DNA from: Bdellovibrionales bacterium
GTDB lineage: Bacteria; Bdellovibrionota; Bdellovibrionia; Bdellovibrionales; JAUICD01
Length of the DNA: 64,000 bases
Reading direction: 5' to 3'
Assembly: GCA_965197425.1 (NCBI GenBank)
Contig: CBDANC010000014.1
Span: 317,662 to 381,661, forward strand
The notes under the pieces are model-generated. The model was given only the letters and a program-made list of their open reading frames with translations. It was not told the origin of the DNA and did no database searches. The translations under genes and the position numbers were made by a program. Below, one piece after another: positions 1 to 59,650 of this stretch (position 1 is the first letter of the stretch; each line of letters begins with the position of its first letter).

Positions 1-55
1 CTATCAAAGGCTACCACTGATTTTTCCCCCAGTGGCGCAACTTGGCTTAGCCTTA

Positions 56-484
56 TTACTCAACACAAATGTAGTCGGTACCACTATCTGTGTGAGTACA
101 CTTAGCCTCACCATCACCAACAGTTAGCGCATTAACGTCATCTGTTTCGTCCGCCTCAGCACATTTACTAGGACTAGCGCCATTAGCAGCGGCAAAGTCA
201 AAACTGCCACTACACGCTTCAAGGGCAGGGGTGACAGGGGTGGTGGCGGTAGATGCTGCCGTTTGAACACAAGTGACATCTTTTTCGTCGTCACCTTCTC
301 CTTCGGTAGTAGTACACTGTTTTTCATCTGTCTCTAAATCATCTTTTTGAGTTTTTACATCACCCTCATTACTACTTTCCACACAACTGCCTGCAACGTA
401 GTTATCACCACAAGAAGACAGGTCGTCTTTACCACATGACGCTACAAATACCAGCGACAATATGATCATTAATTTCTTCATCAT
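56..484 (-). CDS. hypothetical acidic secreted lipoprotein
   Basis: ORF track. N-terminus MMKKLMIILSLVFVASCGKD is a signal peptide plus lipobox (VAS-C). Mature part is D/E/T-rich with scattered Cys. No family recognised. Confidence 0.55.
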   Translation of the reverse strand: MMKKLMIILSLVFVASCGKDDLSSCGDNYVAGSCVESSNEGDVKTQKDDLETDEKQCTTTEGEGDDEKDVTCVQTAASTATTPVTPALEACSGSFDFAAANGASPSKCAEADETDDVNALTVGDGEAKCTHTDSGTDYICVE

Positions 485-721
485 AACTCCTTTATATCTA
501 ACAAGTCCTTCGCAACATCCCGTGGCAAAACAGCTGGATTCTTCTCAGCGCATGGACCAAACCTACCAGGGCAAGACTAGCAAACCCAAAAATTACTGTC
601 AATACTATTTTTCGCAAAAAACCCAGAAAAACTTAAGTCCAAAACTTCAAATTGCGTTCGAAACGATCCATAAAACAAGTCTCCAACTAAAGGTTAATAA
701 GGTTATCTTGTATAAATTGTA

Positions 722-2206
722 CTAGCCCTCATAGGATATAAAAACTACATCTTCTTCCATATTAAGGCCGTTTGGTTTTAGTTTTTCATTTCTTATTATA
801 ACTACTTTTTTATCTTCTCTAGCCTCGCTCGCCATGAAATAAAATAAGCTGCAACCCAAAGTCACCAGATCACGTCCACATGAATCAGGCGGTCTGATTT
901 TATCAATGTCTTCTTCTTGAATAAATGATTGGACAATTTCTTTAACTTCCAAAAGAGCGTGTTCGCACTCTTCCAAAGATAGCCCTGGCTCAAAAATTGG
1001 TATAAAACGCAATAATCTTGACCTCTTACCATATAATCCACACTGTATGCCCGATATGCCCATAAGATCAGGCAGTTCTAAGTAAAGTTTGTTAACATTT
1101 TTTTGAAGCTTCAAAGTCTCCAATGATGCCAAACTTAATGCTTTATAGTTTTGTGAAGCCTCTTCCCTCATCCCAACTTCTTGCAAGTACATGCCCTGAA
1201 AGGGAGTAAAAGAATTATGAACAGACAAGTTAGGTTGCTTTATAAGATGTAAATACATCTCTCCTGGCGTCTGATCCCAGTCAATTTCAACCGTCAGTTT
1301 ACCCTCATTTTCGTGAATATCCTCATTTCTATTTCCTATGACAATATTCTGAAAAGCCTTCACACCTAAGCTACGCTCCCTACTGACTGCATGAGAGAAA
1401 TATTTTCCAGGTCTCCTTAGCTCTTCATCTAATTTTGAGACATGCCATAAAGTCTCAAGAGCACTTTTGAATTCTATATCATCTATATTGTCGTGCTTTA
1501 AAATTCTAGTGTCAAAATAGCTTTCTAAACCCAACACCCTATCACTACTTATTCTCTCCCTTGCAAATATGGCTTTGAGCCTGTCAGGAGACATAATCAC
1601 ATCACGTACGATGGTAACCCAATTGTCCACAGAAACATCAGGGCCAGTTACTACATGCAGCTTGTCTTCAACGCCAATCACATAGTCAAAAAAAACATCC
1701 TCTCCATCCTCTCCATCCTCTACTCTTCGATTGATAATTTCTATACTGCCAATTGATATTATTGAAGTATTTTGCGGAAAACTATCCAGAACAGTAGCTT
1801 CCACTAAATTTTCGATAGAATCAGAACAACTGTCTTGAGTTACATCCTCACTACACACAACATCCACACCTAATCTATCGAGCAAATACCACACCTTCTG
1901 AGACAATTCTAAAGACATAGGTGCTGATTGACTACGGTTTTTGGAATCTTCAGAATCTTCAGAGTTTTTAGAAAAATACTCCAACAATCTACCCTGCACC
2001 AGCCAATTACTTCTCCAAACTTCAGAAGTTAAGTTTATAATTTGATCTGCAGAAAGCCGGGCATCAGCTTCTTCATACACCACATTTTCTTCCTCAGGTT
2101 CCACCTCAAAATGAGAAGTTCCACCGGAACCTGTGTTTTTATTTTCCTTACTGTCTCCGCAAGAAACCAAAAATATTAAAGCTACCAATATAAAACCATA
2201 TCTCAT
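722..2206 (-). CDS. hypothetical lipoprotein (494 aa), last gene of a three-lipoprotein operon
   Basis: MRYGFILVALIFLVSCGDS has a signal peptide and lipobox. Its ATG overlaps the stop of the upstream ORF (ATGA, 2203-2206). No family recognised. Confidence 0.6.
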   Translation of the reverse strand: MRYGFILVALIFLVSCGDSKENKNTGSGGTSHFEVEPEEENVVYEEADARLSADQIINLTSEVWRSNWLVQGRLLEYFSKNSEDSEDSKNRSQSAPMSLELSQKVWYLLDRLGVDVVCSEDVTQDSCSDSIENLVEATVLDSFPQNTSIISIGSIEIINRRVEDGEDGEDVFFDYVIGVEDKLHVVTGPDVSVDNWVTIVRDVIMSPDRLKAIFARERISSDRVLGLESYFDTRILKHDNIDDIEFKSALETLWHVSKLDEELRRPGKYFSHAVSRERSLGVKAFQNIVIGNRNEDIHENEGKLTVEIDWDQTPGEMYLHLIKQPNLSVHNSFTPFQGMYLQEVGMREEASQNYKALSLASLETLKLQKNVNKLYLELPDLMGISGIQCGLYGKRSRLLRFIPIFEPGLSLEECEHALLEVKEIVQSFIQEEDIDKIRPPDSCGRDLVTLGCSLFYFMASEAREDKKVVIIRNEKLKPNGLNMEEDVVFISYEG

Positions 2207-3432
2207 GTCATATCCTCTATTTTTTGATCTAATAATTCTAAAAGCTCTATATGTCCATCAAGTGATAGCTCAAGAGAACCCCATGTTTCTTCCATTTGAA
2301 TCAACATATCTTGATGCTGAGCTATCAAAGCATCTCTAGTGTTGTTATACTCTTCATATAGCAATTGAAAGTAGTTGGCATACTCTGCCGGGGAATTTAC
2401 GTTTAGATCTAAAAAATAGTTGGTTCGGGCTATCAGATCATTCCATAGAGTACGACCATTATCAGGCTCATACATAGAAGGATTTTCCAATAAAGCATTA
2501 TCTAAAAAAGAGATGCCCAAACCCACAGTCATAAATGTCCCAACTTTTGCTGCCGTTCTAATTTTTTTGTTTGTTTCAATCCCGTTAGCCACTACCTGTG
2601 CTGCTCTTCTAACCTTATTAGCATGCACAACACCTTTAGCAGCAACTGCGACCACTTTTACAACTCCGTATTGCCATAAAACCACACTCAATCCAATATC
2701 TAGTGCAATTACTGAGACCATCTTTATTGTGTCATTTTGCTTTTTTGTCCCAATCCCCCTATCCAAACTTTCTAAAAAATCGGTATCAAATATACCGGGA
2801 CCTCCATGCATTTGAGATAAGTAAGAGCTTGCACTGGTTGATACCTTCGATATCAAGCCCAACCATTGATCCCTATCATCAACATCACATAAGTAATCAA
2901 AACCAGTCAAAAATGTTCCACCTTCCAAACCAGCAGCAACAAAAGCACCATACTCACCAAAAATATGGCTTGCCTGCTCTAATCTTGCTCTTTTGTTATT
3001 TTGTTTATACTCACCGCTAGCTCTTCTAGAAACGGTTTTTCTCAAGTCCTTTGAAAGTTCAGTATGTGAATCTATAAACGCCTTGCAAGTTTTATCTCGC
3101 CAGTCTGTTTCAGATAATTTTTGTTCTAACAACAAATTATTGTGATCAATCAACAAATCTAAATCATGAACAAGTGTTTCTGTTAGCATAGGTTCGTTTG
3201 AAACATTTAAACTATCTTTTGTTACATTAGATGGAGCTAGAATTACCTCTATAACACCCAATCTGTTTCTTACATCACGTTTCAAACCTTCTAGCTGTGC
3301 TAGAGTTAGATTATCTTGATCCAGTATCGATGAATCGCTTACTAAGTTATCGAATCTTAGTTTATGAGGTAGGAAGTTATCGCTGGAACATCCCGGAGCA
3401 ACAAACAGCATTGCCACCAAAACATATCTCAT
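2203..3432 (-). CDS. hypothetical lipoprotein (409 aa) with C-terminal Gly/Ala/Val-rich hydrophobic segments
   Basis: MRYVLVAMLFVAPGCSSD lipobox. 4-nt start/stop overlaps on both sides. Hydrophobic stretch VSVIALDIGLSVVLWQYGVVKVVAVAAKG ... VGTFMTVGLGISFL, then an acidic helical tail. Confidence 0.6.
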   Translation of the reverse strand: MRYVLVAMLFVAPGCSSDNFLPHKLRFDNLVSDSSILDQDNLTLAQLEGLKRDVRNRLGVIEVILAPSNVTKDSLNVSNEPMLTETLVHDLDLLIDHNNLLLEQKLSETDWRDKTCKAFIDSHTELSKDLRKTVSRRASGEYKQNNKRARLEQASHIFGEYGAFVAAGLEGGTFLTGFDYLCDVDDRDQWLGLISKVSTSASSYLSQMHGGPGIFDTDFLESLDRGIGTKKQNDTIKMVSVIALDIGLSVVLWQYGVVKVVAVAAKGVVHANKVRRAAQVVANGIETNKKIRTAAKVGTFMTVGLGISFLDNALLENPSMYEPDNGRTLWNDLIARTNYFLDLNVNSPAEYANYFQLLYEEYNNTRDALIAQHQDMLIQMEETWGSLELSLDGHIELLELLDQKIEDMT

Positions 3433-4604
3433 CTTATTCCTTGCCTTAATGTTTCTAGTAGCTCTTTATATAATAGCTCCTTTTCTTCGCTGGTGAGCTC
3501 TCCTTGAAATTCTGGGTGTTCTGGATCAAACTCAATGAACTCATCTAATAGAAGATTATAGTCTTCAAGCTTAGCAAATTCTCCTTTGGACATAGATAAG
3601 CCAGCAACTCCACCACCTAAAATATACCCCGTATGCCCAGTGACATAAGCCGATGACAAGGTACCAATTGCCGGAACCACACGCGTAGATGCTTGGACTC
3701 CATTTGCTAAAGATGTATTTGCCCATCTATTAGAAACATTAGACCAGTTGACTCTACCAAAAGATATCTTGGAAATAACTTTGTTTGCACCCCACCTAAC
3801 TGCTCCACCTACAGGTCTTCTGAACCGCGCTCCAGCCAAAAAAGAAACAATACCAATAATAGCTCCTGCGGCACCTTTATTGTTCTCCCACTCATACATA
3901 TCAATATTTTTTCTCTGTTCTATACGAGCAGCAAAAATAGATATCTGTTCTACAACATAATCCACATCTATATTAGTGGGTTTATCATCGTTGGGCCTTG
4001 CTTCAATAACTTGATCAAGCAACAAGCTAACCAAAAAAGAATCATAGTTTGCAGCTCCAAGATCATTTAAGAAAAAAGCTTCTACGGGCCTATCCAAACT
4101 AGATTTGTCAATAATAGCCTGTTTTAGATGGCAAAGCACGGGAGTCATTGGGGCTTGGAATATTGGAAGTTCCTCAAATGTTATATTGTCCCAAACAGCA
4201 CTTCTGTCCTCGAACAAGTACTCTTCGGGTAAAGAATAAGGAAATGTTCTTAGAGAAGAATCATTTTCCAAGTCATCGCAGTCAATTACATCTCCAGGCT
4301 CAGTCGATACATCCTCCAACTCAGCTGCTTTAGCGGTATCAGGTGCAGTCATAACCCTTCTTACAATGTCTTCATTATAAATAAGAAGATTGTCAGGTTC
4401 CTCTAGCTGCTCTTCGGGATCCACAAGTTCTTCGGCTTCTTCTGATTCTGTTTGCTCAGATTCTGGTTCTTCTGCAGCATCAGGCAAACCCGGTTCAGTT
4501 TCAGACTCAGAAGCTTTCTGACAACCCAATACCAAAAAAGCCAGTATCAAAAAATAGCCAGTGCAAATAAGTAAAGACCTAAACCTCATGACATCACATT
4601 TCAT
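3429..4604 (-). CDS. hypothetical lipoprotein with glycine-zipper-like segment, first gene of the operon
   Basis: The ORF track extends to 4649, but the ATG at 4604 (MKCDVMRFRSLL...) has AGGAGG 9 nt upstream. Lipobox LAFLVLGC. GAAGAIIGIVSFLAGA and GGGVAGLS resemble glycine-zipper segments. Confidence 0.6.
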   Translation of the reverse strand: MKCDVMRFRSLLICTGYFLILAFLVLGCQKASESETEPGLPDAAEEPESEQTESEEAEELVDPEEQLEEPDNLLIYNEDIVRRVMTAPDTAKAAELEDVSTEPGDVIDCDDLENDSSLRTFPYSLPEEYLFEDRSAVWDNITFEELPIFQAPMTPVLCHLKQAIIDKSSLDRPVEAFFLNDLGAANYDSFLVSLLLDQVIEARPNDDKPTNIDVDYVVEQISIFAARIEQRKNIDMYEWENNKGAAGAIIGIVSFLAGARFRRPVGGAVRWGANKVISKISFGRVNWSNVSNRWANTSLANGVQASTRVVPAIGTLSSAYVTGHTGYILGGGVAGLSMSKGEFAKLEDYNLLLDEFIEFDPEHPEFQGELTSEEKELLYKELLETLRQGIR

Positions 4605-4792
4605 GGCGTGGAACCTCCTGACACTAAGCCAAAGCCTGCACCAAAACATAACTCAAAACTAAGACCCACATCTTAATAAAACTAAACTCTTGTATTATTT
4701 ATAAACCTAGGCTGTTTTTGTAAGCCTTATTGTCACCAGATATTTTTTTTAAATAGAAAATTGCAAGCCCGACTGCCAGATAAGGGTCAGTG

Positions 4793-10701: not shown

Positions 10702-12804
10702 ATGACTAATCCACTAAGTTCAAATTTTTTTCAGTTCACATTAGCATCGTTTTTTGTGCTTTTTTTGGCTAGCATTGCCAACGCTCAATGCTTGGTATCC
10801 CCTCGTGGAGATGAGAGTTGGGCAAACCTTCCTGTATATGAGGCGGCTTTTATAAGAGCTGCAGAGAAGGCTGATGGGAGCTGCTTAATACACATGTTGG
10901 AAGAAGAGCAGGTGAACATAAATGTACAAGATGATAGAGGGAACACCGCAGTTATTTTATTGGCCTCAAGACCAGGAATAATACCAGCGGATTTGGTTAA
11001 AAAGCTAGTTACATATGCTTACATAGATCTGACTATTAGAAATAATGGAGGATTAAATGTCTTCGATATGGCTAGCTATGGTAATCAAAGGGTGCTTCTT
11101 TTTTTAAATGAATTACTTGCTGATCATTCTAGTACTTTTTTGGATTCTATTGCCAATAGAAATATACAAGCAGTCCAAAGAGCAATTAACTTTGGTGTAG
11201 ACCCTAACATTAGACATGAAGGTCCTAACGGTGAGACTGCTCTAATGGTTGCTGCTAGAGCAAGATATCTTCCTGTGGCTGAAGCTATTTTGAATTCATC
11301 TACTCCTGTGGATATAAACTACCAGCTTGATAACGGAGAAACAGCCTTAATGATTGGTGTACATAGCTGGCATATGGTTGACACACTTTTAGAGCGTGAA
11401 GACATAGATGTAAATATTGAAGATTTAAATGATAGAACTGCATTAATTCATGCAGTTTTTGATAGAAACAACAGTTCTGTTAGACGTCTATTACAAGTAG
11501 AAAACATAGATGTTAATGTAACAGATGTGGGTGGGGAAACAGCACTTTTAGCAGCTAAAAGACTTAATGAACCGGAAATAGTAAACATCTTAAAGCCTTA
11601 TGTTTCGATGGCGTTACACAAAGCTAGTATCGAGGGTGATGTCAGCACTGTGAATTCTATTATATCTCAAATTGTACATGACAATACACCAGATGCAAAC
11701 ACCAGTGATCTTATAAACTCAAAGGACTCGAACGGAAACACTCCTTTAATGAATGCTGTCTTGAGTGAGAGTGAATCAAAAAATACTGTGGTTCGTACTT
11801 TAATTTCTGCATCAAACATTGATTTAAATGCTTCCAATCAAAGAAAAGAAACAGCTCTACTACTTGCCGCGAGGGTTGGGGATTCATCTGCTTTTAGACA
11901 GATCTTATCCTCTGACAAATTAGAAGATGTAAATGCTCGGGATAGATATGACAGAACTGCACTGATGAATGCCTCTCTTTCTGGAGCATTAGAAATTGTG
12001 AATCAACTTTTGACTTTTGAAGGAACTAATATCGGCATTAGGAACAGGTCTAATGAGTCAGCTAAGAGAATTGCAGAAAGACTCGGTCACTCAGATATAG
12101 TAGCCGTATTAGAGGAAGCTGAGATCGTAGCAAAAGAGAAATTTTTTGAAGCTTCTAGATCAGGAGACATGGAAGCGTTAAGGTTATATCAAACTGGATT
12201 TGATATAAATATAAGAGAAGAAAATAGAGATGGCAGTACTGCTTTGATAAATGCTGCCAGAAGTGATCATACATCTATGGTAGAAGAGTTATTAAAATTC
12301 CCGAATATAGATGTAAATGCTAAATCATATGATGGTTCTACAGCTTTGACTGCGGCTTCACAGCTTGGACATGCAGATGTGGTCAATCTACTTATAAATA
12401 ATGTCGAAACCCATTTAGATGTATTTGGTAAACAAGGAAGAACTGCCTTTATGTGGGCTGCTATCTCTGGCAATAATATCATTATTATTAATAACCTCAT
12501 GGCAAAGAACGCTGATCTTACCCTTGAAGACAAAGAACGCGGGTTTACTGCATTGATGTTTGCAGCTCAGAGAAGAAAAATAAGTGTTCTTGAACGAATT
12601 CTACCTCATAAAGACGTAGGTGTATCTGATATAGAAAAAGCCATGGAGGTGACAAGAAGCGGGGAAGTGTTAGATTTGTTAGAACAGCACAGACTTGATA
12701 AAATGACTGTTGGTGAAAGAATTAGCAATTGGTGGAAAAAACACTTTTCAGGAGGATCGGAAGCTTTCTCTTTCGAACCCTTTCCAAGAAATGAAATTTA
12801 TTGA
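10702..12804 (+). CDS. secreted ankyrin-repeat protein (700 aa)
   Basis: GGAGG 8 nt upstream of the ATG. Signal peptide FFVLFLASIANAQC. More than 12 ANK units recognisable (GNTAVILLA, GETALMVAARA, GETALMIGV, DRTALIHAV, GETALLAAKRLNEPEIVNIL, GNTPLMNAV, ETALLLAARVGD, RTALMNASLSGALEIVNQLL, GSTALINAARSDHTSMVEELL, GSTALTAASQLGHADVVNLLI, GRTAFMWAAISGN, FTALMFAAQRR). Confidence 0.85.
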   Translation: MTNPLSSNFFQFTLASFFVLFLASIANAQCLVSPRGDESWANLPVYEAAFIRAAEKADGSCLIHMLEEEQVNINVQDDRGNTAVILLASRPGIIPADLVKKLVTYAYIDLTIRNNGGLNVFDMASYGNQRVLLFLNELLADHSSTFLDSIANRNIQAVQRAINFGVDPNIRHEGPNGETALMVAARARYLPVAEAILNSSTPVDINYQLDNGETALMIGVHSWHMVDTLLEREDIDVNIEDLNDRTALIHAVFDRNNSSVRRLLQVENIDVNVTDVGGETALLAAKRLNEPEIVNILKPYVSMALHKASIEGDVSTVNSIISQIVHDNTPDANTSDLINSKDSNGNTPLMNAVLSESESKNTVVRTLISASNIDLNASNQRKETALLLAARVGDSSAFRQILSSDKLEDVNARDRYDRTALMNASLSGALEIVNQLLTFEGTNIGIRNRSNESAKRIAERLGHSDIVAVLEEAEIVAKEKFFEASRSGDMEALRLYQTGFDINIREENRDGSTALINAARSDHTSMVEELLKFPNIDVNAKSYDGSTALTAASQLGHADVVNLLINNVETHLDVFGKQGRTAFMWAAISGNNIIIINNLMAKNADLTLEDKERGFTALMFAAQRRKISVLERILPHKDVGVSDIEKAMEVTRSGEVLDLLEQHRLDKMTVGERISNWWKKHFSGGSEAFSFEPFPRNEIY

Positions 12805-12879
12805 TAAGATTTTTATATGACTAAATAAAAACAGATAGTCATATAGGAACTATTAATTTTAAAATCTAAAATTAAAAGA

Positions 12880-30782: not shown

Positions 30783-32408
30783 ATGAAAACCAATTTTATT
30801 CAACAGATCATCGAAAATTCAAATACAGATGTTGTAACTAGATTTCCTCCAGAGCCTAATGGATATCTACATGTAGGTCATGCCAAAGCTATTTGCTTAA
30901 ACTTTGGGTTAGCAAAAATGTTTAAGGGAAAATGCTTTTTAAGGTTTGATGATACCAATCCAGAAACAGAGAGCGTTGAATATATCAAAGCAATTCAAGA
31001 AGACATAAAGTGGTTGGGATTTCAGTGGAATGGCAAGGCAAGATATGCTTCTGATTACTTTGAAGCTCTTTTTGAGTTAGCGGTTGAGCTTATAAAAAAG
31101 GACCTGGCATTTGTGGATGACGGGAGTGTAGAAGAAATTAGATCCATGAGGGGGTCGCTTACTGCGCCTGGAAAAGAAAGCCCTTATCGAAACAGAATTG
31201 TACAAGAAAACTTAGCGCTCTTTAATCAAATGAGGGAGGGGAAATTTGATGATGGTCAGAAGGTTTTAAGGGCTAAGATAGACATGACAAGTGGAAACAT
31301 GAATTTAAGAGATCCAATTTTATATAGAATAAAAAAAATGTCTCATCCTAGAACAAAAGATTGGGTTATTTATCCAACCTATGATTTTGCACACGGACAA
31401 TCAGATGCAATGGAGCGCATAACTCACTCTATTTGTACTTTGGAATTTGAAGATCACAAACCCTTGTATGATTGGCTTATTGAAAATCTAACTCTTCCTT
31501 CAAGACCAAGGCAGTATGAATTTTCAAGATTAAACTTAGATTATACAGTGATGAGCAAGAGAGCTTTGTTGCATTTGGTAGAAAATAAATATGTATCAGG
31601 TTGGGATGATCCTAGAATGCCCACAATTAGAGGTATGAGAAGAAGGGGATATCCTGCTAGTGCTATAAGAAAAATGTGTGAACTAGTAGGTGTTACAAAA
31701 AAAAATACTATAACCAAGCTTAGTTTTTTGGAGGAGTGTGTAAGAAGACAGTTGGATGATGTTCCTAGACTAATGGCGGTGTTAAAACCAATAAAAGTAG
31801 TTTTAACAAATTATAATGGGGAAGAAATCCTAACTCCGCTTATTCACCCACAAAAACCGGAGCTTGGAAGAAAAAAGTTAATGTTTACAAAACAAATTTT
31901 TATAGAACAAAGTGATTTTATGTTAGAGCCAAAGAAAGGATTTCATAGATTAGGTCCCGGTGGCTTAGTAAGGCTTAGATATGCTTATGTTATTAGATGT
32001 GATGAAGTAACAAAAGACAAACAGGGCAATGTTGTGGAGTTAAGGTGTACTTATTTTCCGGAAACTAAAGGTGGAAAACCATTGGCTAGTGGAAAAAAAG
32101 TAAAGGGAATAATTCATTGGGTTTCATGTATTTATAATAAAAAAATAGAGGCAAGATTATACGACAGATTATTTTTTGCAGAAAATCCTGGAAAAGATTT
32201 TTTGAAAGATCTTAACCCAAATTCCTTGGAGATAATAAAAAATGCCAGAATGGAAAATACAAATAAGGTGGAAACTCCACTCGTATATGAAACATGCCAG
32301 TTTGAAAGATTGGGATTTTTCTGTCCAGATCCAGACTCCACCAAAAAAAATTTAGTAATGAACAAGGTTATTGCATTAAAAGATTCTTATACTGGCACTG
32401 ATTGCTAG
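30783..32408 (+). CDS. glnS: glutaminyl-tRNA synthetase
   Basis: RFPPEPNGYLHVGHAKAICLNFG (HIGH region), VMSKR (KMSKS region), and the GlnRS-type C-terminal anticodon-binding region. Confidence 0.95.
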   Translation: MKTNFIQQIIENSNTDVVTRFPPEPNGYLHVGHAKAICLNFGLAKMFKGKCFLRFDDTNPETESVEYIKAIQEDIKWLGFQWNGKARYASDYFEALFELAVELIKKDLAFVDDGSVEEIRSMRGSLTAPGKESPYRNRIVQENLALFNQMREGKFDDGQKVLRAKIDMTSGNMNLRDPILYRIKKMSHPRTKDWVIYPTYDFAHGQSDAMERITHSICTLEFEDHKPLYDWLIENLTLPSRPRQYEFSRLNLDYTVMSKRALLHLVENKYVSGWDDPRMPTIRGMRRRGYPASAIRKMCELVGVTKKNTITKLSFLEECVRRQLDDVPRLMAVLKPIKVVLTNYNGEEILTPLIHPQKPELGRKKLMFTKQIFIEQSDFMLEPKKGFHRLGPGGLVRLRYAYVIRCDEVTKDKQGNVVELRCTYFPETKGGKPLASGKKVKGIIHWVSCIYNKKIEARLYDRLFFAENPGKDFLKDLNPNSLEIIKNARMENTNKVETPLVYETCQFERLGFFCPDPDSTKKNLVMNKVIALKDSYTGTDC

Positions 32409-32585
32409 CACTGAAAAACCATTGACAACAAACTGTCTTCGCTAGTTTTTGGCGGCGGCCCAACGTTGCACAAGGTCTTCGCACACGTTCCAACATTGAT
32501 TAAATCTGACCATAAACTGTATTTTATTAGGATTTTCTAAAAAAAGTTATAGCAATGTGTATCTTGTTTGCTATGATCTTGTTTC

Positions 32586-35500
32586 ATGGGATGGGGCTTT
32601 CAAAACAAAAACCTTCACAAGGGTATCGACAGTTGTAACACCAACAGTGCTAGTGCTGTTGATGTTGTTGGCGAAGAAGTTAATGCTAAAAACTTTAGTA
32701 ATAACAAATATTTAGCTCCCCCCCCCCCCCCCCAATATAAATTTCCACTATTAAAATGTCTCCACCTGCAAGGTGGTGGGTACTCCACTGGTGGTGGTTT
32801 TACTTTAATAGAGACTGTAGTTGGTTTAGCCTTAGTATCCATATCTGGTTTTGTAGTTACATTTATATCTGGTCAGATGAACACGGCATCTAAGTTGACT
32901 GATGATTCCTATGAATGTGCAGCTATAGCTACTAATGTAATGGAGAGATTTTCTCAGGGTGGCTTAGAGCCTATTGTTTTGCTTAACTCAGAGCATTTCC
33001 CTGGTACTCCTCCTACTGATTTTGAAGCAGCTATAGAAGAAAGAAGCACTATATCTGTAAACACTAGTGGAGAGGCTACTCATAATGCTGGTCCTAATCT
33101 TGTTATAGAGCCTCATGGTAGTAATAGTCACATTACTTTGAAAGTAGATAAGTTTCATAGAGGTAGTGGTGTTAGTTTAGTAGAAGATTTATTTAACGAG
33201 TACCGTTCTACCATATGTCCATCTAATGTAGATAACCTGACCTTTGATCTTGCTAATGATATGGTGATTACCTACAAGGCTGGTAACACTGCTAAGCTGA
33301 TAGACTTACATAAGAAGCTAGATGATGTAAAACCAGCAACTCCAGGACCTGAACCTGATTACTATAAGGAAATGGCTGATGCTAATTTATCTTCTAATAA
33401 CTATGCTTGGGATACTTTTACCTCTGAGTACTTATATGGTTTATCCAAGAGTCTCAAAAATGCCTTAAATTTGCATCTCTTAGCAGGTTTTACTGATTAT
33501 AGTACTAGTTATACTAATACTGCTCAGCCATATGATGTGAAGATAGGTATAAGGCCTTGGAGTTTATCTAATCGTAGTGCTCTTGGTTGTACTGATACTA
33601 AGGTTCATCCAGCAGTCTTTTTAAGACCTGGTTCTAAATATGACAGATACATTACAGATAGTATTTTAGGCACCAACGAATTAGAGAGACAGAATAAGAT
33701 TGGTTATAAGCTGGAGAGGAGTCTAACTTCAGCTAAGATGAGGTCAGATGTAGGTTTGAAGTTATTTGTTGAAGTTAAAACAAGACCTGGTGTGGATAAG
33801 TTAGAAAGATCCTGTAAGTCAAATAAGTTATTTGCTTATGCTAACAGCTTTGCAGTTCCTCCATCTAGAAGACCTGTATATGTTCACCATGACAGAGAGA
33901 TTAAAGATGGTTCTAATGATTTTATAGCTTCCACAACTCACCCTCTTCAAAACAACCCTGGTTTAAATGTTGGTTATAAGTATGGTGCTGCTGATTCTAT
34001 CCCTACTAAGCCTGATGGTGCTACTCATGCTACTCTTAGTGATTATGCTACAGAAGCTACATTAAACTTTAGGAATATTGGTAAGGTTTGGAGAGATGTA
34101 AACAACCCTAGTTCCTTTGCTGATGATGAGGAAGATTTTAGAGGGGTCTTTTTATGTGGTTTTGAGAAGAATCGTTTTGAAGACTGTGTTAAAGGCCCCC
34201 CCGATTGTGATGATATACCAGGTTTAAGCTCCTATAGGACTTTTGGTACTAATGGTGCACATAAGGCTGGTATAAGAAGCTATGATACTGAGTATGGTAG
34301 TAGAGATGGCTCCGTAAACTCATCTAGGAGATGGGATTTATGTGAGAACTTTAAGCTTACCCCCAGTCAATCTAATAATTCTACCACACTAAAAGCCAGT
34401 GCATCCAATGTAGATGATGGTAAGTTAGGACTTGAGTTAGATAATTTAAATGTATCCAGTTGGCCTGATGAAGATCAGGATGCTGATTATAGAGTTAGAT
34501 TTAAGTTAGTAGATGAATATGGTAATGATTACTCTGCCACAGAAAATGGACAGATACAGGAGGATGATTATACCGAGGAGCATAGAGTTTTTGCCTACAA
34601 CTGTGCACAGTTTGGTAATACTCATGCTTCTGGTAGTTATCAAAATCCCCCTATAGGCTGTGGAGTTATAAATCCTGATCCTAATATTGCTAAGTACAAC
34701 CGTAGGATAGATAATCCTTTCTATAATACCCAAGCAGATTGTGAACATCAGTTTAACCTACTTTCCAGCCCCAGTGCTCAATGTGTGAAAGTTACTAATA
34801 TTAGGGTTTACAATGATTATTTTGATGATTCCATAGAGGAGAGGACAGGTCCTGCGAACAGCCCTGTTCGTCCTGTTAATGGTACTGGAGTTACCTGTGA
34901 TTATTGGGTTGAGCAATGTGTAAAAGATGGTACAGCCTGTGTGCAATGTGGCCAAGGTTATATGCGTGATTATCCTAATGCCACAAGACAATCTTGTCAT
35001 GGAGGTTCTGCAAGCTTAGGTGGAGTTACCTGTTATAAAGCAGGCTCTCATTGTTGTCATAATGATTATGGTAGTTTTAACTGTTTTACAGGTAAGGATC
35101 CTTGTTCAAATCCTAATGGTTGTGGATTTAACCAAGATCCTACCTGTGGAGCTACCTGTGGTGATAACGGCCACGGATGTAATATTTGTACAGGAGCTAC
35201 TCCTTGTAACACAGCTGGTTGTGATAGTTGTAGTTTTGGTACTGCTGGAGTTTGTCAATATAAGTGTAGTTTCCCTACTCAGTACTGTGATGGTGCTAGT
35301 AATTGTGTAGAATGTCTGAATGACGGCCACTGTGGTGGTAATGATATATGTTGTTCTTACAGTTGTAAGGCCCCATGTAGTCCAGATTCTGATCAATGTG
35401 AGGAGTGTGCTAGTGATTGTGCATCTCCTCATTCAATATGTGGTTCTGGTGAAGGGTGTAATGGTAGTGGGTGTTGTGTAGAGCTACCGCCTTGGTGTAA

Positions 35501-43570: not shown

Positions 43571-44158
43571 TTAAGAAATTTCTAAAGAAGAGGTAAGAGT
43601 TCTTATCAACAACTCTTCTACATAAGTTCTTTTGATTTTCGGTACAAAACTAAATAATCCATCCATACACGACTTATCTAAACCACAGGGTTTAAGCTCA
43701 AACTCTAAAAAATCATTTGTTAGATTAAATGCCATTCCATGATATGTTACCCACTTCTTTGCTCCAACACCTATTGATGCTATCTTCTTATCAAACACCC
43801 AAACCCCAGTGTCCTTTGCATAAGCGTTTAACTTAAACTCTTTTAAAACCTCAATTGCAACTTGCTCCAAATTTCTCAAGTGCTTGTGAAGGTCTCTTTT
43901 TTTTAAACTTAATATTGGATAAAGTAAAATTTGCCCAGGACCATGTAAGGTAACCTTTCCGCCTCTTCTTATCTTGAAAATTTCACCATCAAAATTTTTT
44001 ACATCTTCCATATTACCAGCAGAACCCACTGTAATAACCTTTGGATGAGAACAAACAATTAGAAATTCTTTTCCCGTGTTATGAGTTATGTCCAACAACT
44101 CTAGTTGCTTGTTAAGAGCTTCTTTATAATCTATTAACCCAAGGTTTATAACTTTCAT
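43571..44158 (-). CDS. lipB: octanoyltransferase LipB
   Basis: RRGGKVTLHGPGQILLYPIL is the LipB signature. ATGA overlap with the lpd stop. Confidence 0.9.
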   Translation of the reverse strand: MKVINLGLIDYKEALNKQLELLDITHNTGKEFLIVCSHPKVITVGSAGNMEDVKNFDGEIFKIRRGGKVTLHGPGQILLYPILSLKKRDLHKHLRNLEQVAIEVLKEFKLNAYAKDTGVWVFDKKIASIGVGAKKWVTYHGMAFNLTNDFLEFELKPCGLDKSCMDGLFSFVPKIKRTYVEELLIRTLTSSLEIS

Positions 44159-57770: not shown

Positions 57771-57849
57771 TGAAGCCTCATTAAGCTCACCTTTGTTAAA
57801 AAAAGGTAGGCGTAGCCTCCTTGTTTTTGGCCTCATTAGCCTCACCTTT
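57771..57849 (-). repeat. two inverted A-module 5' termini flanking a terminator-like hairpin
   Basis: gaagcctcattaagctcaccttt (57772-57794) and ggcctcattagcctcaccttt (57829-57849). The second contains the TGA stop of the 602-aa gene. Confidence 0.75.
57798..57828 (-). terminator. rho-independent terminator after the TadG-like gene
   Basis: aaaaaaa-aggtaggc-gta-gcctcctt-gttttt. An imperfect 8-9 bp stem with a T run on the minus strand. Confidence 0.55.
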
Positions 57850-59650
57850 GTATTAGATTTTTAATTTTTCCTCTAATACCTTCACCCCCCAACGGAAGGT
57901 CTCTTTCTAGGTATTTCCTAGAGATGAGTTTTGCCGAGTATCCAACTCTGCCTCCAACTGAGCAACCTCCTGGAATTTTCCCTTCACTTTTACAGTAAGC
58001 AAACATTTCACCTGCCGCATTTTGATTCTCTCCACTTGCCATAGTAGGATTCCAACTACTTAACAGATGACTCCAATCTTGTAGCACCCATGGAGCATTT
58101 GGCTTATAATCATTAATTGATGTTTTTATAGATACATAAGCATCTGGTTTTTCTAAAGACATTACACTTTGATAATTTTCTATCTCATCTGGCTCTATTG
58201 AATAGTATGTGGCATCAAACACATTGGGGACCATTGCACTTAGTTCGGATACTCCTATGGGTGCCAGATCGCTTCGTATATAGTTTTTTCTTTCATAACG
58301 AAGTCTTACTCCCTGCTCATTTTTATCAACTAAAAATGCCAATAAATTTTCTTTTGAATTTAATCCTTCACCATCTCCAGGGTACAATGAATAGTTAGGC
58401 ACTAATCTTTCATGTGAAATTTGGTTTGTTCCAATATCAGTAGCGGCAGGAGGAAGCAGTTTATCCAAAGCTTTATCAAAAGAAACATCTGATTTGTCAC
58501 TGCCACGATGCCATGTACTATACATCCAAGGGCCTATGCTTCCTCCAAATGGTTTTGCATAGCTTTCCGCTGTTAGTGCTACTGGTTTTCCTAAAGGTGC
58601 AAACACTTTTCTAGGAGTAGAAATTGCATTAACCTTAGCATATACAACATGCCACGGGTTTTTCTCATAACCTAAAGTAAATGTTTTTTCTAATATTGAA
58701 TCATCTACATTTCCATATTTTTTATAAGTTGGTAGAGTTTTAGCTTTATCACCGCTTCCATAGTGAGTGATTACTTTGGGGAATATGGTACATCCACCAC
58801 CTGGTCTATAAACTGAATCAGCATATAAAATTATTGGCACAAGATTGATCTGATTAAACATACTTTTACTGTCTTTTAGAGGGTTTACAAAAAATGGACC
58901 TTCTTTGAGGGCTGCTAGGTTAGAGCGAGTCAAGTTTCCCATTAGAGTATTTGAAACTCCGTCTTCAATTTTATTCCCCTCTAAATCTTCGCCATTTTTT
59001 AACTTTTCATGTAACTCTTCAAATTTTTTGCTTTGTTCAATAGAATAATTATGAAACTGTTCTATCCATTTGTATCCGGCAAGCCAATTAGCACTTCCCG
59101 CTAACTCACATTGTGTTTTAGATTCCGCCTGCGCTCTTTTTGAGAGCGCTAGTGCCATTTCATTTAATTTTCCTATAAAACCAAATTTGGCTATATTTGT
59201 TAAAGTGGGGAGCTCTGGCAATGTAGTATTCAAATTCTTACACAAGTTGCCAGTAAGGTCCGTTTTCACATCAGGATGTACATAATCCCAAAAAGCATGA
59301 TTGGTGCATATGCTGGGAAACTCATTTGAGTTATCATCATATACTTTTCCTTCACCTTTTTTTTGAAATGGATGAGCTAATCTTCCAGAATCTCCAATTG
59401 CTCTTACTCTGTAAGATAAGAGCTTCCAGTTTTGTTTCATCTTGTAATTTATATGTGCCATTAGGTTTAAAATTTCAGCCTGTTTAGTGGCAGCATAATA
59501 AGATGCTAAATCAACTGAGTTTTGTAAATTAATTTTGTCGTGTACTACTAGACCAATGTTTATGGTCATTGCAAAAAACACAAATAGAACCTGAAAGATT
59601 AAGACTATAAATATAGACATTTGTCCTTTTTGATAAGCTCTACTAGGCAT
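57842..59650 (-). CDS. TadG-like protein (N-terminal Flp pilus-assembly TadE/G-like domain)
   Basis: GQMSIFIVLIFQVLFVFFAMTINIGLVVHDKINLQNSVDLASYYAA matches the Tad N-terminal domain pattern (TM + ...LQnAaDaAALA). The remaining ~540 aa are unassigned. Confidence 0.65.
   Translation of the reverse strand: MPSRAYQKGQMSIFIVLIFQVLFVFFAMTINIGLVVHDKINLQNSVDLASYYAATKQAEILNLMAHINYKMKQNWKLLSYRVRAIGDSGRLAHPFQKKGEGKVYDDNSNEFPSICTNHAFWDYVHPDVKTDLTGNLCKNLNTTLPELPTLTNIAKFGFIGKLNEMALALSKRAQAESKTQCELAGSANWLAGYKWIEQFHNYSIEQSKKFEELHEKLKNGEDLEGNKIEDGVSNTLMGNLTRSNLAALKEGPFFVNPLKDSKSMFNQINLVPIILYADSVYRPGGGCTIFPKVITHYGSGDKAKTLPTYKKYGNVDDSILEKTFTLGYEKNPWHVVYAKVNAISTPRKVFAPLGKPVALTAESYAKPFGGSIGPWMYSTWHRGSDKSDVSFDKALDKLLPPAATDIGTNQISHERLVPNYSLYPGDGEGLNSKENLLAFLVDKNEQGVRLRYERKNYIRSDLAPIGVSELSAMVPNVFDATYYSIEPDEIENYQSVMSLEKPDAYVSIKTSINDYKPNAPWVLQDWSHLLSSWNPTMASGENQNAAGEMFAYCKSEGKIPGGCSVGGRVGYSAKLISRKYLERDLPLGGEGIRGKIKNLIQR

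Follow-up and report, generated by a model that had tools for sequence, protein, structure and literature searches.

A sixteen-cytosine tract in the leader of a giant pilin-like gene as a candidate phase-variation switch in an uncultured Bdellovibrionales lineage

Does an uninterrupted run of sixteen cytosines near the 5′ end of a very large, pilin-like gene act as a genetic switch in an uncultured relative of predatory bacteria? The question is raised by a 64,000-nucleotide stretch of DNA from a Bdellovibrionales bacterium (GenBank assembly GCA_965197425.1, contig CBDANC010000014.1, positions 317,662 to 381,661), which we analysed as a whole and refer to as the window. On its forward strand, a giant open reading frame (ORF) of 1915 residues (32586-38333) encodes a 71-residue leader, a G/FTLIE motif (the slash marking the predicted cleavage site) followed by a hydrophobic helix, then a unique domain of ~750 residues and ~1100 residues of Cys-rich repeats, and it is the leader that carries the run, C16, at 32718-32733. 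The reading that we favour, as a probable but by no means secure one, is that C16 constitutes a slipped-strand translational ON/OFF phase-variation locus in the leader of this gene. Homopolymer phase variation is in itself textbook biology, and what is new here is the unusual gene and the unstudied lineage in which it is found.

An earlier reading of the window, made from its letters alone (the sequence-only reading), had singled out C16 as the sole long G/C homopolymer of an AT-rich stretch, and a scan of all 64 kb bears this out. The GC content is 36.7%, the next longest run of C is a C7 at 34196-34202, and no run of G exceeds 6. Assuming a C frequency of ~0.19, our own arithmetic yields an expectation of ~4e-7 for a run of this type in 64 kb, counting both strands, so that the tract is far beyond chance, and its length is above that at which G/C runs slip (~7-9 or more). 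The sixteen cytosines span codons 45-49, read as CCC five times, plus the first base of the CAA codon for Gln50; the tract starts 132 nt past the ATG at 32586 and ends 62 nt 5′ of the Gly71 codon (32796-32798), both distances agreeing with those first given. CCC accounts for 5.8% of the proline codons in the rest of the giant ORF, versus 13% in the window's remaining ORFs, and the other poly-proline runs of the giant ORF are built from mixed codons (e.g. CCT CCG CCT CCA), which argues that the tract is not a by-product of proline coding.

The effect of tract length on the reading frame was simulated for 12 to 20 C. Lengths of 13, 16 and 19 C yield a full-length product of 1914-1916 residues, and every other length in this range ends translation after 50-56 residues. 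With 14, 17 or 20 C the frame meets a TAA at 32738-32740 (OFF, 50-52 residues), and with 12, 15 or 18 C it meets a TAA at 32752-32754 (OFF, 54-56 residues). The simulation reproduces both readings that had been predicted beforehand, NINFHY-stop and PI-stop: 15 C gives ...PPPPPNINFHY-stop and 17 C gives ...PPPPPPI-stop. The prediction that a change of one nucleotide in either direction truncates the product made from ATG 32586 is thereby upheld. The tract thus lies within the translated 5′ end (codons 45-50 of 1915), where any non-triplet change leads to early termination; being 132 nt inside a conserved ORF and not upstream of its start codon, it does not have the layout of a promoter-spacer switch. 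On the minus strand, a promoter-like match (GAGACA-17-TATATT, 32734-32762) ends directly at the G16 run and would start an antisense transcript within it; the count of such matches is at chance level, this one is not obviously kept in a related contig (L053, below), and we do not rely on it.

Whether ribosomes would pass through the tract can be addressed by comparison with relatives. Orthologues of the giant ORF were found in P0001 on contig L001 (79% identical; recovered by a word-indexed search of 5.8 billion proteins), in P0123 on contig L053 (recovered by an exhaustive profile search), and in P0132 and P0122. In the window, L001 and L053 alike, the frame opens at the same ATG, 12 nt beyond an in-frame TGA, and the encoded N-terminus is MGW/MGR. 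The leader region (32586-32798, codons 1-71, ending with Gly71) is of low complexity and prone to insertions and deletions, and it is an open frame in the three orthologues, with 71 codons in the window, 74 in L001 and 83 in L053. The three leaders differ greatly in sequence and yet all are open, composition-matched shuffles staying so with P = 0.015, 0.006 and 0.008, and their other two frames contain 1-16 stops. Net length differences between the window and L001 amount to 33, 6 and 18 nt, all multiples of 3. The leader carries in-frame insertions, deletions and short duplications (33 nt and 18 nt relative to L001), that of L053 contains a threefold NTSARxV repeat, and two of the few substitutions just 5′ of the G/FTLIE motif relative to L001 are synonymous in the ORF frame (CCA/CCT, TGT/TGC).

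Directly upstream of the shared ATG lies a conserved element of ~45 nt (32540-32585 in the window, 3648-3693 in L001, 3842-3887 in L053), whose core TTTGCTATGATCTTGTTT is invariant in the three orthologues. This element has been kept although the proteins are only 61-79% identical between lineages, and similarity stops abruptly 5′ of it. It includes an extended -10-like TGcTATGAT at 32569-32577, 8 nt before the ATG, and ATG 32586 has no Shine-Dalgarno sequence, as is the case for many other genes of the window. We infer that the element would be the promoter of a leaderless or near-leaderless mRNA. A consensus promoter scan returned chance-level matches only and missed the element on account of its weak -35; a known RNA leader or riboswitch was considered and rejected, Rfam being empty over 32380-32920 even at E ≤ 1. 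Between the tract and G/FTLIE there is no in-frame ATG, GTG or TTG (start codons listed up to 32800), and the next in-frame ATG, M98 (32877-32879), lies beyond the signal sequence; gene callers start there if the leader is broken, as in P0122. Because the ATG, the 45-nt element and the open leader are kept in three orthologues, and there is no alternative start, it can be regarded as largely settled, at the level of sequence conservation, that translation begins at 32586 and passes through the tract.

The sequence-only reading had proposed comparing the length of the tract in related strains, and the relatives available allow this comparison between lineages. At the homologous site, L053 carries a C9 (3978-3986), read as GTA CCC CCC CCC ACT between recognisably homologous flanks; it is in frame, and a 1-nt change there truncates the product at 34-55 residues. 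L001 reads CAAACAG at this site and has no tract. Tract-site lengths are therefore 16, 9 and 0 C in three lineages, which are not strains of one species, and both tract-bearing genes are in frame. Tract length is hence polymorphic at a homologous site among related genomes, as in contingency loci, with the genomes belonging here to different lineages. Contig L054, which holds a further orthologue, begins downstream of the 5′ end of the gene. Searches for exact matches to the giant protein, to its version starting at M98 and to GlnRS returned no record; JGI (Joint Genome Institute) metagenome contigs held no relative by protein profile or by the invariant 23-mer of the 5′ element; and one scan of genome contigs found no orthologue of the giant gene.

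The giant gene occupies an accessory island of ~11 kb (32409-43570) between glnS (30783-32408) and lipB (43571-44158). The region is considered accessory because three related contigs lack it: in L050 and L051 glnS abuts lipB, and in L052 only a gene of 278 residues lies between them. The remainder of the island is largely taken up by a convergent ORF of 1510 residues (38807-43339, minus strand) with a reprolysin/metzincin-like domain (Reprolysin_5, 29 bits against a cut-off of 27), and the pair formed by the giant ORF and its metzincin-like partner recurs in L053 and L054. In L053 the pair sits in a different neighbourhood, and the orthologue is immediately preceded, in the same orientation, by a second giant Cys-rich ORF (2-3787), which is truncated by the end of the contig (>1261 residues), so that tandem paralogues may exist in some lineages.

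A second long tract is found in the same gap between glnS and lipB in L052 (OZ241914.1, a circular genome at 27x), which carries a C23 at 12838-12860. On the gene strand this run, G23, lies between a perfect TTGACA and a TAGCAT, 61 nt upstream of the 278-residue gene (11940-12776, minus strand), whose product has a lipobox-like N-terminus, a long hydrophobic C-terminus and a weak match to a chlamydial inclusion-membrane family (E 0.009). The C23 of L052 may be a promoter-spacer switch; the spacer separating TTGACA from TAGCAT would then measure 29 nt, well outside the functional range of 16-18. Across ~160 kb of the clade (our estimate) there are only three G/C runs of at least 9, namely C16, C9 and C23, all of them beside accessory membrane or surface genes, and ~175 kb of other Bdellovibrionales loci (also an estimate) contain one G9 and no longer G/C run. 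Downstream of glnS in L052 (11685-11945) there are, in addition, three direct repeats of ~100-110 nt, each ending in TTGTGCAACGTTCAAGGT and with hairpins before it, and the core AACGTTGCACAA occurs in the opposite orientation just after glnS in the window (32462-32473). The two sequences may represent a small repeat element marking an insertion hot spot.

A near-identical strain provides the closest comparison. P0129 and P0122 are taken to be encoded on one contig of 461,012 bp from this strain. P0122 (1711 residues) starts exactly at M98 of the window and is 100% identical to residues 98-1089 (992 residues), past which it carries a different Cys-rich array of ~eight 44-residue units. P0129 (62 residues) contains the leader through ...EYLA, followed by an unrelated 16-residue tail without the proline run, and this tail matches no frame of any sequence compared. 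Its leader differs from that of the window at 5 of 46 positions, versus a body that is 100% identical over 992 residues, a divergence that points to recombination in the 5′ part of the gene or to an additional leader cassette. A more speculative possibility is that the template-strand G16 might form a G-quadruplex promoting recombination, as at gonococcal pilE, with mosaic leaders and swapped repeat arrays as its products.

Taken together, these data lead us to the following model. Translation would start at ATG 32586, a step supported by conservation, on what may be a leaderless mRNA from the TGcTATGAT element; the five CCC codons would then be read through into G/FTLIE and the remainder of the 1915-residue protein, as encoded. 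Slipped-strand mispairing during replication, which is well established for G/C tracts of at least 8, would add or remove C. Computed outcomes are that 13, 16 and 19 C would be ON and that other lengths would stop at 50-56 residues, with no usable restart before the signal, so that a population would be expected to be a mix of cells with and without the protein. The assembled 16-C state is ON. Since the leader around the tract is under weak constraint and is probably removed by cleavage, changes in the tract would carry no cost to the mature protein. The context also fits that of a contingency gene, with an accessory island, a variable repeat-rich C-terminus and a broken copy of the gene in a near-identical strain.

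The slipped-strand reading thus draws on the in-frame tract, the truncation upon slippage, the variation in length among orthologues, the rarity of CCC and the C23 of a relative. Several observations weigh against it. The gene of the near-identical strain is probably interrupted at or just after the position of the tract, as judged from the two predicted proteins, and this break is not a simple 1-nt slip. The predicted start of P0132 (1562 residues) is an ATG of its own that lies 18 codons ahead of the cleavage site, and the long leader may hence be dispensable in some alleles. The 71-residue leader is far outside the 6-26 residues of prepilins (PMC4471445), the 64-kb window has a single such tract and shows no genome-wide contingency repertoire, and we found no literature linking Bdellovibrio to homopolymer phase variation. 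Lastly, the assembly-derived length of the tract may be off by one, and its heterogeneity within a population and its reversibility are predicted properties.

The best-surviving alternative is a non-adaptive slippage runaway, in which mutation pressure would have lengthened the tract within a loose leader, leaving it unstable but unselected, in a gene that is drifting to loss in a lineage with a reduced genome. Such a process would account for a leader rich in in-frame insertions, deletions and duplications (33 nt and 18 nt relative to L001, threefold NTSARxV in L053), for the splitting of the gene into P0129 and P0122, for the lack of a tract in L001, and for the fragmented state of the orthologues in L001, L053 and L054. 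L001 and L054, however, are contigs of 3x coverage, in which many breaks are probably errors. Moreover, the mature part shows 100% identity between two strains over 992 residues and retains 61-79% identity across lineages, which indicates purifying selection on a functional protein; both tract-bearing orthologues are in frame, and the second long tract adjoins another surface-protein gene in the same gap. We consequently regard the runaway as unlikely.

A quite improbable alternative involves no change in DNA. In this case, slippage of RNA polymerase would generate transcripts in mixed frames, and the five consecutive prolines would stall ribosomes and impose a dependence on EF-P, tuning expression in a non-heritable manner. 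On general grounds, both slippage and poly-proline stalling may apply to this tract, which exceeds the length of the RNA-DNA hybrid and is translated as five CCC codons. RNA polymerase is documented to slip on homopolymers (PMC5009743, PMC4256274), but the bacterial cases are mostly A/T runs, and slippage of this kind is compatible with DNA-level switching, which would be expected for a C16 anyway.

Homopolymer length is the main residual error of long-read assemblies, and an artefact of assembly or polishing, with a true tract that is shorter or out of frame, has therefore to be weighed. The relatives come from long-read metagenome assemblies, with contig names giving coverage. Against this, the run is internal, in frame and bounded on both sides by homologous flanks, an independent assembly of another lineage has a C9 at the homologous site, a circular genome at 27x has a C23 nearby, and assembly errors do not usually create a 16-nt run de novo, all of which renders this explanation highly improbable. 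A start downstream of the tract, for instance at a non-canonical CTG at codon 61, would place the tract in the promoter or 5′ untranslated region with an effect on transcription only, as the sequence-only reading had also entertained, and would suit the 18-residue leader called for P0132, a 71-residue leader unprecedented in prepilins (PMC4471445) and the missing Shine-Dalgarno sequence at 32586 (a feature of many other window genes too), but it has become unlikely, and we deem it hardly probable at all, now that L001 and L053 have been found to retain the shared ATG, the stop that precedes it by 12 nt, the 45-nt element and an open leader with in-frame length differences, that two of the few substitutions just 5′ of the motif have turned out to be synonymous (CCA/CCT, TGT/TGC), and that no in-frame ATG, GTG or TTG separates the tract from G/FTLIE in the window.

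If C16 is a slipped-strand switch, the nature of the protein that it controls becomes the next question. The label of pilin-like given to the giant ORF from sequence holds as far as the motif and the hydrophobic stretch are concerned. The class III signal pattern is present as G71/FTLIETVVGLALVSISGFVVT, with Gly at -1, Phe at +1 and Glu at +5 followed by a hydrophobic helix, the predicted alpha-1N segment extending from F72 to T92 (32799-32861), and 10 family members share G-1, F+1 and E+5 without exception. Family models, on the other hand, score below their curated cut-offs: over residues 71-88, with the first 200 residues scored, Pfam N_methyl reaches 17.0 bits (cut-off 21.2) and NCBIfam TIGR02532 15.4 bits (cut-off 16.3), and both score lower still on the whole protein. 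Leader length also departs from the range of 6-26 residues described for prepilins (PMC4471445), with 71 residues in the window, 74 in L001 and 83 in L053, and maybe 18 in P0132. Two AlphaFold2 models have a mean pLDDT (predicted local distance difference test) of 30 and 34 and are unusable, the second, which shows a 51-residue N-terminal helix, being unreliable. Solved structures searched by profile gave no match, pilin or other, and no prepilin peptidase is encoded in the 64-kb window. The giant protein would accordingly be described as resembling a modular pilin, as at most a candidate member of that group.

Within the Cys-rich region there is a tandem repeat (36444-37330; 426 nt, 2.1 copies, 97% identical). 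Judging from the alignment of the window with P0122, the repeat region is a second variable part of the gene, its C-terminus varying between very close strains. Partial, silent copies of this gene are absent from the rest of the window, which makes cassette-type gene conversion less likely inside the 64 kb. Features related to the cell surface, where the protein is predicted to be located, comprise the class III-like motif, the Cys-rich repeats, the metzincin-like partner and the accessory island.

Comparison of NuoH places the window in the Bdellovibrionales, with the 1.6-Mb circular metagenome-assembled genome OZ241914.1 as the nearest species representative (87% identity). Among the genes of the window are those for complex I, pyruvate dehydrogenase, electron transfer flavoprotein (ETF), an ankyrin-repeat protein of 700 residues (10702-12804, plus strand) and a TadE/G-like protein of 602 residues (57842-59650, minus strand), the latter being the only such ORF in the window. 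The ankyrin-repeat protein and the 1.6-Mb genome of the nearest relative hint at a eukaryote-associated lifestyle. On the minus strand, at 722-4649, three tandem ORFs of 494, 409 and 406 residues lack any match in Pfam; the start sequence ATGAGATAT is common to the first two, and the group may be a lineage-specific paralogue family.

Should the slipped-strand reading prove true, C16 would bring homopolymer phase variation to a phylum, the Bdellovibrionota, for which we found no literature report of it. A tract that switches would imply that uncultured relatives of predatory bacteria vary their cell surface as mucosal pathogens do and that the giant pilin-like protein and its metalloprotease partner are molecules of host or prey contact under fluctuating selection, and would thereby offer a tangible way into the lifestyle of a lineage that only metagenomes have revealed. 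A one-base misreading of the tract would lead annotation to call the gene a pseudogene or truncated. We also put forward, as a tentative and broader proposal that we think rather less likely to hold than to fail, that a small-genome, probably host-associated clade of Bdellovibrionales places contingency switches of C9-C23 on accessory surface-protein cassettes at a glnS-lipB hot spot, the main example being a new family of giant modular pilins whose unusually long leaders (71-83 residues) would be cleaved off and whose conserved promoter may yield a leaderless mRNA; on this proposal the phylum would gain its first described case of phase variation by a simple repeat.

The known systems closest to this one include the pilC genes of Neisseria gonorrhoeae and Neisseria meningitidis (gonococcal pilC frameshift: Jonsson et al. 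1991, as cited in PMC4471445): a G/C homopolymer (poly-G) lies in the signal or leader at the 5′ end of a pilus-related gene, and a 1-nt change truncates the product, resulting in translational ON/OFF control. There is no sequence relationship, and PilC is not a pilin and has a Sec signal; the gene of the window has instead a 71-residue leader before a class III-type motif and 1915 residues, and its switching is predicted. Campylobacter jejuni, with 29 polyG/C tracts of 7 or more (PMC4965091), and Bordetella pertussis, with its own homopolymeric tracts (PMC1891110), likewise have long, polymorphic G/C runs in AT-rich or unbiased genomes, located in or before genes for surface structures. These species, however, have tens of tracts of 7-15 nt whose switching has been measured, whereas here there is one tract per 64 kb and one in a relative, of 16 and 23 nt, in an uncultured lineage. 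The promoter-spacer switches of Bordetella fim (PMC1891110) resemble the C23/G23 of L052 and not the tract of the window, which is inside an ORF. The inlA gene of Listeria monocytogenes, which likewise encodes a large surface protein, carries a homopolymer close to its 5′ end, and a shift there yields a very short product (PMC2831843); this 5′ tract, however, is a poly(A) of 7-8 nt, expected to slip far less often than C16. The modular type IV pilins exemplified by Streptococcus sanguinis PilB and PilC share with the giant protein a pilin N-terminus (G/F...E5 and a hydrophobic helix) followed by large grafted modules that are probably ligand-binding (PMC8179133). They differ in that the family-model scores obtained here are sub-threshold, in that the largest of them surveyed has 860 residues (PMC8179133), so that the 1915 residues of the giant ORF are more than twice that size, and in that their leaders are of 6-26 residues, the 71-residue leader being about three times longer than any described for a prepilin (PMC4471445).

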